64,000 bases of DNA, taken from Eledone cirrhosa. Lineage: Eukaryota. The position numbers were made by a program, and so were the translations under genes. Positions 1 to 59,950 of this stretch are shown here, in pieces. A model generated the notes under the pieces. That model was given only the letters and a program-made list of their open reading frames with translations. It did no database searches and was not told where the DNA came from. The stretch is taken from assembly GCA_964016885.1 (NCBI GenBank), contig OZ024743.1:147498001-147562000 (forward strand). The letters run 5' to 3'. Within the stretch, counting starts at the first letter, position 1. The number at the start of each line of letters is the position of its first letter.

Positions 1-103
1 AATGATCAAGAATGAGAGACATTTCAAGATGATGTTAAACGATAGTAAATAGACACGCAAAGAGGAAAGGAGACACAAAACGAGACAGAAATGTGGAAGA
101 AAA

Positions 104-220
104 TTACTACTACAACTACTACTACTACTACTACTACTACTATTACTACTACTACTGCTACTACTACTGCTGTTGCTGCTGCTGCTGCTACTACTACTAC
201 TACTACTACTGCTGCTGTTG

Positions 221-8806: not shown

Positions 8807-9031
8807 GAAAAGATTCAGGAGCCCGACGGCTGGATCCAAACAGACGATGGTGATCATGATGATGATTAAATTGATGAAGTATTTGGCGTTCGGATCTAGC
8901 TGTCGAAACGGGCGGAGCCCAGCTGTTGGGGGCCAGAATCTATTCATATTACCCACTACCCACTCTATTACCCCAAGTATCGAGCACTCTGGTGGGTTAT
9001 GTTCCACCTGGTATCTTACCACACCCTCTCT
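8807..9031 (+). mobile_element. Hairpin-headed, (TA)n-inserted short element with HHR 3' half (family H)
   Basis: GAAAAGATTC...GAATCTATTC inverted head, then TTACCCACT...AAGTATCGAGCACTCTGGTGGGTTATGTTCCACCTGG; homologous to 34456, 36189, 51098 and 54414. Confidence 0.75.
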
Positions 9032-9043
9032 GATATATATATA

Positions 9044-10836: not shown

Positions 10837-10900
<64 letters not shown>

Positions 10901-11134
10901 CTACTATAGTTCATAGTAACAGTCCGGCTGCTGTCTTCTTAACAAACCACTCTTCACTGATTGACCTCGATGTCACATGATTGATTCTTTTGAATTTGCC
11001 ACCGACGCAGTAGGCAATGATTTTTTCACTGGCTCGGAACTTAGTCCACGCTTTGCTTTTTTCCATCCGGTGAATTATTTTTGTATAAGTTCCCTGTGTC
11101 CACGTATTGCCTGGAAACTTAGCTGAGAATAGAC

Positions 11135-11213
11135 TTCCCTGATGATGAAAGGCTTCTCCGTACGTTTCTTCGGAAACTACGTTTATTCCCTTTCAGAAAC
11201 TAATTAGTTGGAG
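11135..11213 (+). ncRNA. Type I hammerhead ribozyme, long stem II
   Basis: TTCC-CTGATGA-TGAAAGG[36 nt]CCTTTCA-GAAA-CTAATTAG-TT^GGAG. Confidence 0.87.
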
Positions 11214-11266
11214 TGAAATTTTAGTAAGTAAGTTAATTTTTATAATTTTCTAATTTTACGTCTCTC

Positions 11267-11369
<103 letters not shown>

Positions 11370-11610
11370 TAAACTGCTACTATAGTTCATAGTAACAGTC
11401 CGGCTGCTGTCTTCTTAACAAACCACTCTTCACTGATTGACCTCGATGTCACATGATTGATTCTTTTGAATTTGCCACCGACGCAGTAGGCAATGATTTT
11501 TTCACTGGCTCGGAACTTAGTCCACGCTTTGCTTTTTTCCATCCGGTGAATTATTTTTGTATAAGTTCCCTGTGTCCACGTATTGCCTGGAAACTTAGCT
11601 GAGAATAGAC

Positions 11611-11689
11611 TTCCCTGATGATGAAAGGCTTCTCCGTACGTTTCTTCGGAAACTACGTTTATTCCCTTTCAGAAACTAATTAGTTGGAG
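11611..11689 (+). ncRNA. Type I hammerhead ribozyme (duplicate of 11135)
   Basis: Identical motif in the second duplicated unit. Confidence 0.87.
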
Positions 11690-11742
11690 TGAAATTTTAG
11701 TAAGTAAATTAATTTTTATAATTTTCCAATTTTACGTCTCTC

Positions 11743-11913
<171 letters not shown>

Positions 11914-17368: not shown

Positions 17369-18299
17369 TGTTATTTAGATGAGTCACTTGGCTCCAATTA
17401 TGTTATTATACGTGCATGCGTTCAAGGAGAGAAGGAGAAAATAAGAATAGGATATAGAAAAAGAAACACAAATTAGATAAGTTGTGTGGCGAAAAAAGCA
17501 CCCAAAATTTAAGCATTATGGAGGAAGTATAACATTGTCAGAGAGAGTTAGACAGAAAGATAAGTCACTACGCAAACCGAGACTAAAATATTCAAGTTAT
17601 GAGCGTTGATATTTATTATAATGTTAAACCTTTTTAGTGATATAGTCCATGATTGCATATACTTATATAACATATAATCATGTGATTATACTACCACGTG
17701 TGAAAAATGAACCCCTATATGAGTATTTTCTATTTAAATTCTAACCACGTGCTGATACGTAAAAGCGTATTTACACCGGTGGTAAGTTTATAAAGTATCC
17801 CGTCAATCAGAGATCCGTGGTATAGTCATGCGGTAATACCCCCACAACCTGGCTAGAGTTAGTATCGGCTTGTACAGCGGTTGGGATTTATATATATAAG
17901 CTCACAAATATCACAAAATCAAAGGGTGATTTTCTCAAATATATATATATGCGTATTGTAAGCCCCAAATTATCAATCAATATGAATACTCTCATAATGA
18001 ACGTATGGGAAAGGCTATATAGCATGTTAATTTAAGCTATTTCTTTTAATTTCGTCACCTATTACTAATGTAAAAGTGTTTAAGTCTATTATTACGTAAT
18101 AAGTATATGAGTAGACAGTAGAAACAATAAAATGGTGCAGACTTAAAGAGGTTATAATAGTACATTAAGTGGCCTCGTTTTTACTATAGTAGAATGAGTA
18201 GGAATTCCAGTGCAAACACGGAGAAAGAGTTTCAGATATCTTATTTAAGATTGTTATGAAAGACCTCATAATTACGAGTCCCTCTGTGAGACAAAGATT

Positions 18300-19625
18300 A
18301 CATTCGAGGTTGCCAGGCCTGTATGCTTGGGCAACTTTCAAAATATCTATTTGAGGGACTAATTGATATTAGATTTTTAAAAATTCAATATGAAATGGGC
18401 GAGCGTTTAAATCCCATATGAAATAACAGGTTCTCAGAATCGCGGTAGATAAGTACTGGATGTCTTAATTCACCTATGAACTGCCAGAGAGTAGTGAAAC
18501 AAAATTTCTCATAGATAATCTTTAAAAAAATGATCAGTTCGATGAAACAGCATATCAGCACAGATGTGAAAGAAACATGGGAACAACATGTGAATGAACA
18601 TATTTCTACTTATTCATGCGATACCATTTATCCACAATCTACCAATATTCCTAATAAATTCAAGGGGATTAATTTAGCTCTTATATAAAAGTAAACTGGA
18701 AATGAAAACTGGACGACCGTTATATTTTGTGGAGAGAAAGTATTGATAAACTGAACAGTTTTTAATCTCTCATTAATAATACACCTCATATCTAATTCCC
18801 AATAGATTTTAGCAACATAAAAATCTCCTTCTTAGATATACTAATACCAAAGAGAAGCTCAAATCTAGAAACTGATATATATATATCGGACCTAAGGCCT
18901 TCTGCCAATACTTTCTTTTCAATTTATTTCATCCTAAACTTACACAGACCAACACTCAATTTATTTTCTCTAAGCGAATTTGCACAATAGTCTCAAACCC
19001 AATAACAAGAGACTACAGGTTAGTAAAGATAAAAAAATAGTTATTAAAAGAAAATATCACACCTAAATGTAAACAATAATGGTATACAAAAACAAGTATT
19101 CTTAACAAGGAACTCCATGAAATCAAAGCCATATACGTGTCGTACCATATATGTCAGATTTTAAACTAAAGAATTCCGACATCCCTACGTATCTCCAACT
19201 ATAGATACCGAGTCAATTAAGAGAAAGAATAAACGAAAAACCTCTGGTAGAAATATCCAAATATACATTTAAAATATAAACAGAATTACAAACAATATAG
19301 TGACGAATGTCAAATTACATACAGTATCTAAACACTCACTATCAAAAGATGGAAACTGCACATTTCGGAGTGAGGAGGTACATTTTATGAAATGTATGAT
19401 TTATCTTCAACAATAAAACAACGTTATGCGACACTCCTAAAAATTATACAGAACGCAAGGATATAGACATTTGCGCCCCTTGTCATACACAGAGTATACG
19501 CAGTACATAACGATTCCAGCACAAATTTAATCTTGAAAATTTTACTCTGAACACCTCACGATGTTTGGAATCTTTCGGTACAAAAGATATAAATTAAGTA
19601 TTCTTTCTGCAAATGCCCTTTAAAA
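18300..19625 (+). pseudogene. Decayed Penelope-like reverse transcriptase/thumb (and probable GIY-YIG) remnant
   Basis: Manual translation gives NWK*KLDDRYILW (YxDD region), ISFLDILI, LETDIY, QYFLFNLFHPK and SKRICTIVSNPITRDYRL, matching the PLE RT/thumb pattern FLD..TDIY..HP..ARRICTIVS; many stops. Confidence 0.8.
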
Positions 19626-31604: not shown

Positions 31605-31821
31605 CCTATCTCACCCCACTCTATCCGTATATATATATATATGAAATTAGGGCCCAGAACCCAACGAAACTTGAGTACCTATACTTATCTATGTCACTGT
31701 AGTAATTATTCATACTAAACTCGTCCTATGGACTGAGTGCTCTTACTCTTGGATATTTCCACTTAACTTTTACTTCAGTGTATATATATATAGTTATGTA
31801 ATAAACAACATAAGGCAAATA

Positions 31822-31883
31822 TTTTATTTACCAGTGGTTTCTTAAAAGCAAAAAAAAATTTGCTTTCAATCATCAGAATGAAA
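31822..31883 (-). ncRNA. Type I hammerhead ribozyme
   Basis: Mirror of 31970-32031. Confidence 0.88.
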
Positions 31884-31969
31884 AAATCCTGGTTTATTTA
31901 TTGACGTTGGATTTAAAAAACCTTTTTTAAGGTTTTTAAAATCCAACATCAATAAATAAACCAGGATTT

Positions 31970-32031
31970 TTTCATTCTGATGATTGAAAGCACATTTTTT
32001 TTTGCTTTTAAGAAACCACTGGTAAATGAAA
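31970..32031 (+). ncRNA. Type I hammerhead ribozyme
   Basis: TTTCATT-CTGATGA-TTGAAAGCA..TGCTTTTAA-GAAA-CCAcTGG-TA^AATGAAA; all three stems pair. Confidence 0.93.
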
Positions 32032-32124
32032 TAATTGCCTTATGTTGTTTATTACATAACTATTAATCTCTGTTACCTACATAGAGCACTCTTTTTTCCT
32101 GGACTTTTCCGACCGACTTACTTC

Positions 32125-33081: not shown

Positions 33082-33110
<29 letters not shown>

Positions 33111-33112
<2 letters not shown>

Positions 33113-33715
33113 CTACGATTTGTCATATCCACAAAGTACGAGCGAAACTATCGATAGTCGGGACAAGAAGAACTTTGGTAAAATTTATCTACATCTTTTT
33201 TTCAAACTTACATTTTAGACTTAGCTCCGTTTAATTCATTATTTGTCCAGTTAATTCCTACGAACTAAGAGGAAAGACTAGGTAAATTTTATCTGAATGT
33301 TCCTCACAGAGGAAAGTCTGTGACATTTATCTGTTATTTCTTCAAAGTTACATTTTAAACTTAGCTCCGTTTATATGATTATTTAGTCAGACCAAATATA
33401 ACCAATTCCTTTCCTCCTTAGTCCGTAGAAATCAACTAGATAAATAATCATATAAACGGAGCTAAGTTTAAAATGTGACTTTGAAGAAATAACAGATAAA
33501 TGTCACAGACTTTCCTCTGTGAGGAACATTCAGATAAAATTTACCTAGTCTTTCCTCTTAGTTCGTAGGAATTAACTGGACAAATAATGAATTAAACGGA
33601 GCTAAGTCTAAAATGTGAGTTTGAAAAAAAGATGTAGATAAATTTTACCAAAGTTTTTCTTGTCCCGACTATCAATAGTTTCGCTCGTACTTTGTGGATA
33701 TGACTAATCGTAGTA
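33111..33715. repeat. ~270 bp-arm inverted repeat with internal ~140 bp direct repeat
   Basis: TACTACGATT...GATTATTT pairs with AAATAATC...AATCGTAGTA; ACATTTTA(G/A)ACTTAGCTCCGTTTA occurs twice per arm. Confidence 0.95.
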
Positions 33716-33746
33716 TAATCCATGAGGTTTCGAGCGTTTCAAGAGA
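33663..33746 (-). ncRNA. Variant hammerhead-like motif (core UUGAAAC)
   Basis: Minus strand: TCTC-TTGAAAC-GCTCG[long loop]CGAGC-GAAA-CTATtgATAG-TC^GGGA. Confidence 0.55.
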
Positions 33747-34455: not shown

Positions 34456-34595
34456 GAACGAAGGAAATGTGGTAAGGAACCAGGTGGACCATAACGCACC
34501 AAAGTACTCAATACTTAGGGTAGTAGAGTGGGTAATAGGAACAAGTAAGACCCCGACGGCTGAGCTCAAGCCGTTTCGACGGCTAATTCTGGACT
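34456..34595 (-). mobile_element. Family H element (HHR 3' half), (TA)n-flanked
   Basis: Reverse complement of ~51160-51289. Confidence 0.85.
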
Positions 34596-36188: not shown

Positions 36189-36380
36189 TGAAAAGATTCA
36201 GGACCTCGAGGGTTCAGCTTCAGCCGTTTAAACAGATAGATTAGAACTGTTCGGATCTAGTTGTAGAAACAGACGGAGGTCAGCCGTCGGGGTAATGAAT
36301 CTTTTCATATTACCCACTATACTACCGCAAGTATCGAGTACCCTGGTGGGTTATGGTTCACCTGGTATTTTACCATACGG
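36189..36380 (+). mobile_element. Family H element, diverged
   Basis: GAAAAGATTC...GAATCTTTTC head followed by TTACCCACT body. Confidence 0.75.
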
Positions 36381-46880: not shown

Positions 46881-47188
46881 CTGAGTTTTTCGAATATTAA
46901 TAATTGTTTCTGCTTTAGGCAAAGGATGAAAGGCAAAGTTAACCTCGGCGGGATTTGAACTCAGATCGAACATTAATAATAACATTCGATTCGTTTGCAA
47001 TCATGCAAACAAGTCGCATTTTTAATATATTTATATATATATATAAATATTAAGTTGTTAAACAATATTCGATGATTATGTCAAAGAATGAGTTTTACAG
47101 TAGATTGGAAGCACTTAACGAAAAATAATTTTCAGGAGTTATTAATATTAAAATATAAGCATTAATAAAATAGATGTTCTTTTGATCA

Positions 47189-47251
47189 ATTACATTTTAT
47201 TATACATATTTCGGATGTACAACAGTACGTCCTCATCAGACAACATATAAT
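47189..47251 (-). ncRNA. Type I hammerhead ribozyme
   Basis: Minus strand: ATTATATGTTGT-CTGATGA-GGACGTAC-tgtt-GTACATCC-GAAA-TATGTA-TA^ATAAAATGTAAT. Confidence 0.88.
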
Positions 47252-47330
47252 GATACGTGACATACCCTGAGATGTTAAATGGTTAAGATTAAATCTTAAC
47301 CATTTAACATCTCAGGGTATGTCACGCATC

Positions 47331-47393
47331 ATTATATGTTGTCTGATGAGGACGTACTGTTGTACATCCGAAACATGTATAATAAAATGTAAT
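47331..47393 (+). ncRNA. Type I hammerhead ribozyme (one stem III mismatch)
   Basis: Mirror copy with GAAA-CATGTA-TA. Confidence 0.82.
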
Positions 47394-47428
47394 TGATCAA
47401 AAGAACATCTATTTTATTAATACTTATA

Positions 47429-47519
<91 letters not shown>

Positions 47520-50466: not shown

Positions 50467-51052
50467 CGATGACAATAATTCTATTAGTGAAATCCAGTAG
50501 CTATACAACAAATAACAAAACACACGGACAGCAGAAAAACCTAACACAAACCCTACTAACAAACAACACATCTCCGTCTTTGACAGTATATAGAAAGGGA
50601 AGGATTCTTTCGTGTCTTGAAGAAATCTATGAAACATTTAAATTCTTTTCAAGTGATTATCAGTAATTCTTTTGTATATCGTTCTTGTTTCCTGATTCAG
50701 TACTAACAGGAATATAGAATCAAAATAGTTGACAACCCTATCGCAACATCTTGTTCATTTGTGTGTTTTTTTAAACAAAATTAGATTTAATGTTCTTCAT
50801 GAAATCGTTACCTTTGCTGTTGTTGTTACGTTCGTTATCCTTGTATCTATGTCTGTGTACATAAGCGAGTGCACAATATGACTATGTAGCAGTGTGTATA
50901 TATGCAGGTGTGTGTGAACGTGAATAAAAATATGTGATTCTCATTGTCATTTTTTTCATCTGTATAGTAAAATATCGTGTCGATATCCCATACGCACACA
51001 CAAGCACGCGCGCACACACACACACGCGCACACGCACACACACATATATATA

Positions 51053-51097
<45 letters not shown>

Positions 51098-51101
<4 letters not shown>

Positions 51102-51289
51102 AACCAGTAAGACCCCGACAGCTGAGCTCAAGCCGTTTCGACGGCTAATTCTGGACGCATTAGCCGTCGAAACGGCTTGAGCTCAGCTGTCGGGGTCTTA
51201 CTGGTTCCTATTACCCACTCTACTACCTCAAGTATTGAGTACTTTGGTGCGTTATGGTCCACCTGGTTCCTTACCACATTTCCTTCGTT
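51098..51289 (+). mobile_element. Family H element: near-perfect ~52 bp-stem hairpin head (two HHR 3' halves) plus ~80 bp body, in (TA)n
   Basis: TAGGAACCAGTAAGACCCCGACAGCTGAGCTCAAGCCGTTTCGACGGCTAAT-tctggacgc-ATTAGCCGTCGAAACGGCTTGAGCTCAGCTGTCGGGGTCTTACTGGTTCCTA. Confidence 0.9.
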
Positions 51290-51310
51290 ATATATATATA
51301 TATATATATA

Positions 51311-54413: not shown

Positions 54414-54572
54414 GTGTTTCGACGGCTATTTCTGTCCAGAAATAGCCGTCGAAACGGCTTCAGCTCTGCCGTCGGGGTCTTGAACATTTTCCTATTACCC
54501 AAACTACTAACCTAAGTATTGAGTACTCTGGTGCCTTATCGTCCATCTGGCTCCTTACAAGACTTCTTCGTT
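54414..54572 (+). mobile_element. Family H element with short hairpin head
   Basis: GTTTCGACGGCTATTTCTG-tc-CAGAAATAGCCGTCGAAAC then GGCTTCAGCTCTGCCGTCGGGGTC. Confidence 0.85.
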
Positions 54573-54692
54573 ATATAAATATATATATATTTATAGTGGT
54601 GGAACACTGAAAGGTAGTATCCGTAGTGGTAGAGCACTCAGTCCATGGGACGAGTTAGGTAGAAGTGGTTACACAACAGTTAGTTTACCATA

Positions 54693-54732
54693 CCGAGAAC
54701 AATTGTTTCACCTTGGCGGATCCTCAGCTGGG
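54693..54732 (-). ncRNA. Type I hammerhead ribozyme, sense to the PLE ORF
   Basis: Mirror of 55296 with one stem I mismatch. Confidence 0.85.
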
Positions 54733-55295
54733 AATGGGTATTGTTATAGGAACAGTAAGGACAACCGTACGAACGCGCATGCGCAGAAACCCGGTCACTT
54801 CACACAGGCAATACTAGATTGCGTGGGAGAGGTGTAAGGGAGATAACTGCGAAAGTCCGAAAAGTTTTCAGGTTGAAAATAAAATTACAAAGAATCAGTC
54901 CGGAGCCTTGTAGTTATCCAATAGGTGTTTGGCGACGTGTGGACAACGTGTGAAAAATTCATTTCTCGTGTTTAGGCAATCACTATTGAGTAATCTCTTT
55001 TGAATAGTTATTCGTTCGCCAATACATAAACCACACGTCAGAATTCCCCTTGTGTATGGCTTGGACCTAGTGATGTCTTTCCATTCCACACATCGCCAAA
55101 CACCTAGTGCATAACTACAAGGCTCCGGACTGATTCTTTGTAATTTTATTTTCAACCTAAAAACTCTTCGGACTTTCGCAGTTATCTCTCTTACACCTCT
55201 CGCACGCAGTCTAGTATTGCCTGTGTGAAGTGACCGGGTTTCTGCGCATGCGCGTTCGTACGGTTGTCCTTCCTGTTCCTATAACCATGCCCATT

Positions 55296-55335
55296 CCGAG
55301 CTGAGGATCCGCTAAGGTGAAACAATTGTTCTCGG
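55296..55335 (+). ncRNA. Type I hammerhead ribozyme
   Basis: CCGAG-CTGAGGA-TCCgctaaGGT-GAAA-CAATTG-TT^CTCGG. Confidence 0.92.
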
Positions 55336-55464
55336 TATGGTGAACTAACTGTTGTGTAACCACTTCTATATATATATATATATAAGTTATTCCGGGTTTA
55401 CTCAGGGGTAACCTCAGTAAGTAAGGTACTCAATACATAGCAGAGTGTATATATATATATATAT

Positions 55465-56563: not shown

Positions 56564-56853
56564 AGTCCATAGAATCCATTAGATAAAATATATACAGTAT
56601 TTCTTCTCCCAATCTGCATAAATCAGCCACACAAAAAATCATTTAAACGAGGCTATAAGTTTAAAATATACTTATGAAGAAATAATAGGTAAATGATATA
56701 ACTTATTATCCGCGACTCACAGCTACAGAAAATTTATCCAGTCTTTCTGATAGCCTGTAGAAATTGATTAGACATATAGTTAACCATACATAATTAGGTA
56801 CAAAATTAAAGTTAGAAGAAAAAATGTACATAAACATACCAAAATCATCAACA

Positions 56854-56938
56854 TATCTCTACTACCGGCAGTTTCATTCCATCTTTGGTTATATCCGATC
56901 TTGGATAAATCAACGAGATTGGAAATCATCAGGAGATA
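56854..56938 (-). ncRNA. Type I hammerhead ribozyme, long stem II
   Basis: Minus strand: TATCTC-CTGATGA-TTTCC[..]GGAAT-GAAA-CTGCCGGTAG-TA^GAGATA. Confidence 0.93.
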
Positions 56939-57348
56939 AACTCAATTGGACAAAGATTTTTCTTACAAAATCTCCGCCAGAAACGAATTCAAAATGGCTA
57001 AGAATCGTCACGTGGCTAGTGGTCAAGGCAGAAAGTTTGTGATTGGTGCCTGTAGGCGAGTAGGCTGGTTGCTAGAGAGCGCAGCCAAATATGATTTCCA
57101 ATCTCGTTGATTTATCAAAGATCGGATATATCCAAAAATGGAATGAAACTGCCGGTAGTAGAGATATTTTGATGATTTGGGTATGTTTATGTACAATTTT
57201 TCTTCTAACTTTAATTTTGTACCTAATTATGTATGGTTAACTATATGTCTAGTCAATTCCTACAGGCTATCAGAAATACTGGATACATTTTCTGTAGCTG
57301 CGAGTCGCGGATAATAAGCTATATCATTTACCTATTATTTCTTCATAA

Positions 57349-57538
57349 GGGCGGTGAATTGGCAGTATCAGTAGAGGGTTGGACGCCATGCTTTCTATCT
57401 CAGTTACGTCCCTTTACGGTCCGAGTTCAAATCCCGCCGAGGTTAACTTTGCCTTTCATCCTTACGAGGTCGATAAAATAAAGTACCAGTAATGTACTGG
57501 GTAATTGCTGGCCTTGTGCCTAAAGTAGAAACAATTAT
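57349..57538 (+). mobile_element. tRNA-derived SINE with 15 bp TSD
   Basis: ATTATTTCTTCATAA at 57334-57348 and 57534-57548; the empty site is visible in the opposite arm (~56672). Confidence 0.95.
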
Positions 57539-58868: not shown

Positions 58869-59895
58869 TTTTGGCAACCATTCACGGTGTGGCTCAATGA
58901 CGAATTAATTAATTAAATAATCAACAATCAGAGCAATATACAAGAAAGTATGTCCATAGAATCATTTGATAAAATATATACATTATTTCCTCTCCCAATC
59001 AGCATAATCAACCACACAAAAAATCAATTAAACAAGGCTATACGTTTAAAAAGCATCTATGAAGAAACAATAGATAAATAAACGATAGCTATTTTATCCG
59101 CGATCAACAGCCACAGAATATTTACCCAATATTTCTAATAGCCCGTGGAAATCGATTAGATATATAGCCAACCATACACAATTAGGGACAAAATCAAAGT
59201 TGGAAGAAAAAATCTATATAAGCATACCAAAATTATGTCTCTACCTCATCAGGTTTCATTCGCTTTTTGGAAATATCCGAGCAAGGTTAAATTCAGGAGT
59301 TTCGAAATCATCAGGAAACAAACTCAATTGGACAAAGATTTTTCTTCAATGATCCCCGCCAGAAACGTATTCAAAATGGCTAAGAACTGTGACGTGGCTA
59401 GTGGTCAAGTCAGAAAGTTTGTGATTGGTGCCTTACGGCGAGTGGGCTGGCTGCTAGAAAGCGCAGCCGAATATTGCCTAAATTGTTTCTCAACCATATG
59501 GGATATTATAAAATATATAGATTTAGATATACATAAATTAGACAGAGCAATATACATTTGATAAAATATATACAGTCTTTCCTCTCGCAATCAGCACAAT
59601 CAAACAATGCTTATATACATTTTTTCTTCTAACTTTAACTTTGTACCTAATTGTGTATGGTTGTCTATATATCTAATCGATTTCCACGGGCTATTAGAAA
59701 TATTGGGTAAATATTCTGTGGCTGTTGACCGCGGATAAAATAGCTATCGTTTATTTATCTATTGTTTCTTCATAGATGCTTTTTAAACTTATAGCCTTGT
59801 TTAATTGATTTTTTGTGTTGTTGATTATGCTGATTGGGAGAGGAAATACTGTATTTATTTTATCAAATGATTCTATGGACATACTTTCTTGTATA
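58748..59895. mobile_element. Diverged relative of the 56559 element, again with an inverted arm (59606-59895)
   Basis: Colinear similarity to 56559-57090 and 57540-57775; TAGACAGAGC terminus repeated at ~58760 and ~59539. Confidence 0.88.
59236..59320 (-). ncRNA. Type I hammerhead ribozyme
   Basis: Minus strand: TGTTTC-CTGATGA-TTTCG[..]CGAAT-GAAA-CCTgatgAGG-TA^GAGACA. Confidence 0.93.
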
Positions 59896-59950
59896 TATAT
59901 ATATATATATATATATACAAGGGTGTGTATGATTGTGTATAGAAGATTAT

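Follow-up and report, generated by a model that had tools for sequence, protein, structure and literature searches.

Short hairpin insertions in (TA)n of Eledone cirrhosa as terminal-repeat products of a Penelope-like element with a putative U3-A8 hammerhead

The closest described systems to the repeats analysed here are Penelope-like elements (PLEs). Hydra-clade PLEs are marked by RWK, DKT, CxCX5C, and CxxC + CxH motifs and by having no GxKF/Y (PMC8557442). For Penelope, a start site and an internal promoter have been placed within the pLTR (PMC2377424, PMC8557442). In an anole element, two internal reverse transcriptase (RT) start sites set the tail, and both target strands are cut and extended; cleavage was dispensable in vitro, and no RNA reads at the cut site were reported (PMC11167929). 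A U3-A8 pair is a described core covariant of PLE hammerheads (PMC4209133), the sole work on that core that we found, and our literature search returned nothing on the activity of such a core. In L1 elements, copying of the cap is marked by an extra G on the sense strand (PMC11702581). A search of titles and abstracts, by which subscription papers are little covered, found no earlier report of a cap or cut-site footprint in PLE copies. The questions touched by our analysis are the inverted ends and tails of PLEs, their preference for microsatellites, and hammerhead cutting in vivo, the first two of which have been named as the next task (PMC8557442).

The window, a 64,000-nt stretch of the 3.0-Gb, microsatellite-rich genome of Eledone cirrhosa, contains five copies of a short repeat, here called family H. 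The preliminary description, made from the letters of the window, had read them as carrying half a hammerhead, and this holds for all five (8807, 34457, 36190, 51100 and 54416): each has the 3' strand of stem II, GAAA, stem III, UC and GGGG. The reported lack of CUGANGA was also borne out, with an in-register hammerhead core in 0 of the 5 copies; the sole TTGATGA of the 8807 copy sits inside (TGA)n filler. A mirror copy of the same half was said to stand, as a rule, where the core should be. It does so in the copies at 8807, 36190 and 51100, where the mirror ends beside TATTACCC as described; the 34457 copy is mirrorless and the mirror of the 54416 copy is just 19 nt long. The copy said to start at 51098 is real, with its true start at 51100 (Table 1). 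Positions in the parent element described below are numbered with +1 as the A of AGTCCAG in the parent unit. Against this unit, 51097-51156 is 100% identical to +61..+2 and 51159-51294 is 99.3% identical to +9..+144. The segment 51100-51208 is predicted to form a 50-bp hairpin (z = -16.5), and 0 of 200 shuffles were equally stable. We infer that its inverted arm is a cDNA primed at the inner of two start sites.

Table 1. Coordinates of the 51100 copy, its parts and the other family H copies in the window
Feature	Position	Strand	Remarks
(TA)n target, left	51044..51099		Terminal ATA pairs with UAU, element +59..+61
Inverted arm without tail	51100..51156	-	Parent unit +58..+2
Junction bases GC	51157..51158		Absent from parent; the C would fit a copied cap
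Sense arm, 3' half of hammerhead	51159..51208	+	Parent unit +9..+58
Stem II 3' strand	51159-51168	+
GAAA	51169-51172	+
Stem III	to 51190	+
Predicted cut	51191/51192	+
Stem I 3' strand	51192-51196	+
One-sided 80-nt extension (PLE 'tail')	51209..51291	+	Unit +59..+141; TAT at both ends
(TA)n target, right	51289..51310
Solo arm	34457..34595	-	Unit +1..+139, 97% identity; halts exactly at +1, abuts TA-rich DNA
Older copy	54416..54572	+	19-nt mirror remnant; arm from +2 with tail; 83% identity
Old-subfamily copy	8807..9033	+	Mirror with internal deletion, (TGA)n filler, GC, arm from +2 with tail
Old-subfamily copy	36190..~36385	+	Mirror 36190-36248 ending at +1; arm from +2 with tail

Family H is almost certainly the terminal repeat of an autonomous Penelope-like retroelement, and also its shortest class of insertion. 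The 5' extension of some arms gave 2,241 matches and led to two inverted insertions (L091 and L158) with RT (YRDD) and GIY-YIG frames, both terminating in H sequence. The parent unit is 3,543 bp long, with RT and GIY-YIG in a single ORF and H sequence at its end. Four such units of 3,542-3,543 bp, at least 99.8% alike, form a tandem array at G000:C1:91.47-91.49 Mb; the ORF is open in the translated unit, and the array is a candidate for the source locus. A second tandem array of ~3.5-kb full units lies at G000:C1:437.20-437.21 Mb, and at G000:C1632:29080-29778 a 54-bp unit of the element (+1..+54) is arrayed in tandem, with at least 10 matches. Tandem or partial tandem pLTRs and an inverted 5'-truncated copy are present (L158, L091, L155 and the 3,543-bp array), and the 30 nearest copies all (30/30) lie in TA runs.

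The parent protein has 719 aa from the ATG at +232, with YRDD at 348 and VIY..YIG at 591. By its motifs (RWR37, DKT117, CNCPDRSIC572, CNLC670 and CKH698, with no GxKF/Y), this predicted protein appears to carry the marks of the Hydra clade; an identification as 'Neptune' was dropped for Hydra on the motif check. In L158 (3079-5436), the frame runs without a stop from +31 across the tail to the ATG at +232, and counts 786 codons from stop to stop. A Pfam search with the whole parent protein gave zero matches, and one on L091 gave GIY-YIG at E=0.069. Homologues of the parent protein at E<=1e-20 numbered 2,054, and the 120 listed ones were unnamed or 'hypothetical'. At 18210-18419 on the minus strand, the window holds part of the C-terminus of a related endonuclease (34% identity, E=8e-4).

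The preliminary description had also foreseen a parent, with the motif CCCC-CTGANGA; the parent exists, and this motif does not occur in it. A search for a CTGANGA-bearing parent gave 48 matches, and the 30 viewed turned out to be filler at junctions, degraded copies of the mirror arm or chimeric partners. What the parent has 5' of +1 is the ACCCC of stem I, then the core, UUGANAA, and after it the 5' strand of stem II. Its minimum-energy fold is a three-way hammerhead junction (z -2.9), and the three helices, G10.1-C11.1, GAAA and UH are present in the parent folds. As modelled, the hammerhead of the parent would be a complete one of type I, its core U3-A8 and its loop II long, in keeping with the idea that family H is hammerhead-derived. 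The core positions (U3, A8, G10.1-C11.1) are named by what we take to be the hammerhead numbering. CUGANGA searches miss this ribozyme because of its UUGANAA core and its long loop II.

Complete arms number 4,825. Of 47 distinct complete copies, 35 have UUGANAA as their core, 9 have CUGAGAA, 3 another sequence and 0 CUGANGA; position 7 is free. Nine of the 47 have C3 opposite A8, which counts against the hammerhead reading, and 0 of the 47 have C3-G8. The subfamily with C3 opposite A8 and an older copy with U3 opposite G8 are represented by L126, L225, L284 and others. Across 16 aligned copies, 91% of cells are paired, compared with 27-53% when slid; covariation in these 16 was not above that of shuffles, 39 of 500 attaining its score. 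Rfam gave no hammerhead match for the parent element and none among the best 150 of 291 matches for the window, and those 150 were microsatellite- or hairpin-driven, mostly to miRNA models and all under gathering scores.

Exact arm matches of one subfamily number 32,349 genome-wide, and its short hairpins 10,497; the reversed-pattern control gave 0 for both. Our samples are first matches on C1-C3 (C1-C9 for the five-G listing) with intact anchors, and the unselected set is the first 100 exact arms on C1; since the arm anchor requires an intact +8..+36, shorter and older arms are missed. In this set 81 arms are short, 2 halt between the core and +1, and 17 retain the core, and of the 81 short arms 77 have a mirror, joined head to head, and 4 are joined to TA. 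Thus most arms are coreless (81/100), and their head length is non-random, the opposite of the mostly full cores and random heads by which the preliminary description could have been overturned. Given the parent's fold and the complete arms, the 'half' is a truncation, within loop II, of a whole ribozyme.

The outer ends are fixed at +58 and +138: among 100 arms, 53 end at +52..62 and 43 at +134..144, so that 96 of the 100 fall at the two sites. In the parent a TAT lies directly 3' of each (+59 and +139); TAT also occurs at +83, +103 and +189, and by itself is not sufficient for the choice of outer end. The 80 nt between the two outer ends form a tail, on one arm only. PLE tails are usually 30-40 nt long, and this one is longer. 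Past the tail, the parent sequence continues into the 5' UTR and the ORF. Tail-to-ORF junctions number 386, and of 30 such copies viewed, 17 pass +1 upstream, 5 halt at the wall near +1 that is described below, and 8 begin further down. Both outer ends are also seen, as loose ends into TA, in the contigs of four runs, which cannot show RNA starts.

The mirror is remade at every insertion. In an unselected sample, 32 hairpins had 26 distinct junctions, and the commonest junction (4 copies) was found on four different haplotypes. A variant common to both arms was present in 19 of the 23 variant-bearing hairpins, and the four main haplotypes were also found among long copies; the haplotype counts are not de-duplicated, and monophyly was judged from junctions and haplotypes together. 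One arm pair, L173, is of mixed haplotype, and in L033 and L034 the arm is paired with the end of another element (30-35% amino-acid identity to the endonuclease). It had been proposed that the family is a self-propagating MITE-like derivative of a single fold-back event, and fixed outer ends and a very high copy number are what such a family could display. A founder of this kind is refuted because the junctions are particular to each copy, the arms share variants and occur on long-copy haplotypes, and mixed or chimeric arm pairs exist; the one-sided tail and the want of paired terminal repeats also speak against it, and we regard this origin as improbable in the extreme. The same junctions and shared haplotypes refute, in the sample, the monophyly of hairpin-headed copies.

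Two other candidates were discarded. A fixed GC-start master copy had its basis in a query-like selected set, and 3 of 100 unselected rows have GC. An origin of the wall in a tRNA-derived SINE or a 3' splice site was judged by eye, and the junctions showed no common upstream exon or box. Head-to-head pairs of H arms with other elements were seen at L033, L034, L031, L040, L050, L053, L058 and L055. Two of these eight chimeric loci encode a distant endonuclease relative and five share one CTGAAGA-bearing end; such loci suggest mixed RNAs within one integration.

The main class of inner ends forms a 5' wall at about +1, with a spread of ~-4..+7, at a TYAGTY site that we take to be initiator-like. 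Of 1,062 hairpins whose two arms both extend to +1, the first 50 were counted by hand: at 24 wall junctions an untemplated C directly follows the copied +1, in 9 it does so on either arm alike, and 7 junctions are blunt. The template base there is A (G in a minor subfamily), and single-base centres at +1 are C/G in 12 cases and A/T in 3. The added C is likely to be what a copied cap would leave. The TTCAGTCC subfamily (7 of 100 listed long arms) could partly account, as template, for some single C/G centres; the 9 two-arm cases cannot be so templated.

Another possible source of the mirror is fold-back self-priming of one cDNA, or an antisense template, as for rotifer Penelope elements (PMC3846280). 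This would agree with the variants that arms usually share (19/23) and with the many palindromic junctions, but it fits poorly with the 9 of 50 junctions in which both arms bear the extra base and 0-2 bases intervene, with the chimeric and mixed-haplotype pairs, and with both outer ends lying on a TAT that matches the target. Fold-back is further disfavoured because CG or C-N-G centres leave no loop, and we consider self-priming very unlikely.

The wall behaves as a template end, because cDNAs jump from +1..+2 to downstream sites (+203, +211, +232, +243, +254 and +959, at six loci). In L227-L230, L233 and L235 most of the wall jumps come down close to the start codon, at +203..+254, a zone which may be the edge of a protein-protected RNA. 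A stall of RT at the upper hairpin of loop II, on a longer RNA of the same parent primed in the 3' repeat, could also produce a wall. This hairpin is predicted over -3..+4 in most of the 16 aligned copies, with +1 on its 3' strand. A stall would accommodate this, and also the breadth of the wall (several bases) and the absence, from 9 mapped loci, of a full-length ORF copy that ends at +1. It would not readily explain why the untemplated base is C at +1 but A/T at +42, why the old subfamily (8807 and 36190) halts at the same bases despite a different loop fold (L234, L081), or why 17 of 30 long cDNAs pass a site at which ~80% of short ones stop. A stall is therefore unlikely, although it is the best placed of the alternatives, and we prefer a capped RNA start at the wall.

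A minor class of inner ends lies at the predicted cut site. Very short hairpins gave 373 matches, and 60 arm ends were scored in the first 30 loci: 24 at +42, 10 at +41 (ambiguous through CG microhomology), 4 at +43, 0 at +40 and 22 at other positions. Position +42 is the first base 3' of the predicted scissile bond (C41/G42, UC^GGGG). Single-base centres at +42 are A/T in 8 cases and C/G in 1 among 100 listed rows, different from those at +1 (Fisher p=0.002), and blunt +42 junctions could form via CG microhomology. Like the wall, +42 behaves as a template end, because cDNAs jump from it to +107, +121 and +338 (L300 and L301 among them), and in L286 and L287 untemplated A-rich inserts lie precisely between C41 and G42; these four loci come from 18 picked as interesting. 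RNA 3' ends at +41 joined to +1 showed no peak (33 matches, mixed). From this footprint in genomic copies, the hammerhead very probably cleaves in vivo at +42. The patterns for the main and minor classes span different subfamily sets, so no ratio is given; the minor class is small.

Cleavage at this site also bears on the proposal that the half ribozyme is a functional substrate, cut in trans by the core half at the 3' end of its own RNA or by another RNA. The two halves are predicted to co-fold into a hammerhead (-29.3 kcal/mol, compared with -14.8 and -4.3 for the separate halves), both arms of L287, a short copy, have the cut-site insert, and five G are found at the site in 19 of 100 rows counted by hand. 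Yet the five G are possibly slippage, and L287 possibly descends from an insert-bearing source copy. The main class was copied through an intact site, and cis cleavage by the ribozyme of the 3' repeat explains the cut-ended class, so a substrate role is not needed and seems, if anything, a shade less credible than self-priming; trans cleavage may at most occur as a side reaction.

Taken together, the junctions probably reflect a capped RNA start in loop II, twin priming on (TA)n and head-to-head joining of the two cDNAs, a model built from patterns in genomic copies. A capped RNA would begin inside loop II of the hammerhead, and the element endonuclease would cut both strands of the (TA)n target. 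Each target 3' end could then pair with a UAU in the RNA; the two UAU sites are 80 nt apart, and the interval between them would become the tail. Each RT would cover 58 or 138 nt to the cap, often copying the cap as C, and the two cDNAs would be end-joined head to head, often with trimming or microhomology. In the copy first placed at 51098, one arm would have ended at +2 plus GC and the other been trimmed to +9. Holding only the back half of the ribozyme, the RNA 5' end would stay uncut, and the priming sites would be kept on the mRNA. In the 3' repeat, or in read-through RNA, the ribozyme is complete and would cut at UC^GGGG, and the uncapped 3' product would give rise to the minor class. 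Long copies might come from priming in the 3' repeat, from transfer of short cDNA to the 3' repeat, or from read-through or circular RNA, which are not told apart here. Because 17 of the 30 long copies pass +1, read-through, multimeric or circular RNA, or strand transfer, would also have to be in use.

A broader picture can be offered tentatively, and we lean slightly away from it as a whole. The element would split its own ribozyme by the transcription start, with a disarmed capped half at the 5' end and a live U3-A8 hammerhead at the 3' end. The stubs, more than 10,000 in number, would be pairs of strong-stop cDNAs and a record of cap copying, of twin priming on (TA)n through 3-nt pairing and of in vivo cleavage. 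Long copies would arise by retrovirus-style cDNA transfer, and the RNA ends might close the split hammerhead.

Other inverted or ribozyme-bearing repeats were seen in the window. At 47150-47436, a head-to-head pair in TA-rich DNA has a canonical CTGATGA hammerhead in both arms (47239 -, 47343 +). It is probably a stub from a different Penelope-like family, one with the entire ribozyme inside its arms. A head-to-head pair at 31790-32064 has CTGATGA..GAAA in both arms (31876 -, 31977 +) and a one-sided extension. At 54660-55368, adjoining the 54416 copy, lie inverted arms of 284 bp with a minimal CTGAGGA..GAAA in each (54727 -, 55301 +). Inverted repeats with arms of 259-290 bp, 95-98% complementary, lie at 33109-33717, 56671-57349 and 58936-59896, and two of them adjoin TA runs on at least one side. 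A 476-bp tandem duplication at 10847-11847 has CTGATGA..GAAA in each unit (11139, 11615), resembling a retrozyme dimer.

A single young family, its arms counted in tens of thousands, provides read-outs at single-base level and a copy with an open ORF. If our reading is true, it is rare living-cell evidence on how Penelope-like elements copy themselves. For annotators, hairpins of this kind are not MITEs, and searches based on CUGANGA overlook this U3-A8 ribozyme.

Among known systems, the parent is most directly compared with the Hydra-clade PLEs (Craig et al. 2021, PMC8557442, Files S1 and S2), which it resembles in RWR (RWK-type), DKT, the CxCX5C linker, CxxC + CxH and no GxKF/Y, and also in the (TA)n target and a hammerhead near the 3' end. 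It is longer, 3.5 kb compared with generally <3 kb, its core is UUGANAA with a loop II of ~33 nt, whereas the Hydra rows viewed in File S2 all have CUGA and short loops, and it is set apart by the 80-nt tail and by the putative start site within the ribozyme. The Poseidon element PAc of Anolis carolinensis (Frangieh et al. 2024, PMC11167929) likewise has two RT start sites 3' of the hammerhead that delimit the tail; its target is cut on both strands, and each is extended on a main template of uncut RNA, as we would infer here. The PAc start site is without homology to the cut DNA, whereas here both sites match the target by 3 nt. For PAc, no RNA reads starting or ending at the cut site were reported; in our family, genomic copies pile up there.

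The U3-A8 core in a PLE repeat, the type I form and the short helix I are shared with the Schistosoma Cercyon PLEs (Cervera and de la Pena 2014, PMC4209133), which are described from ~1,300 bioinformatic matches with a minimal helix III, whereas here helix III has 5-6 bp in the monomer fold and there is a genomic footprint of cutting. Non-LTR retrozymes (bioRxiv 10.64898/2026.07.22.740005) are similarly short, non-coding, PLE-related and of high copy number. Family H differs from them in having no tandem arrays of complete ribozymes (81/100 arms coreless, 77 head-to-head) and no sign of spread as a lineage of its own. MITEs share the hairpin look, and differ in their paired terminal inverted repeats and single founder structure, both absent here.

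Finally, the inverted 5'-truncated pLTR with a one-sided tail known from Penelope and from Adineta vaga (PMC3846280) has the same head-to-head arms, palindromic junction and tail on one arm. The ORF-less two-arm stub is the main product here, compared with those pLTRs, and, in contrast to the antisense self-priming considered in that source, the junction bases favour two sense-templated cDNAs. The layout is thus the standard inverted PLE pLTR with a tail, and is known (PMC8557442, PMC3846280); what is of interest is the mechanistic read-out.
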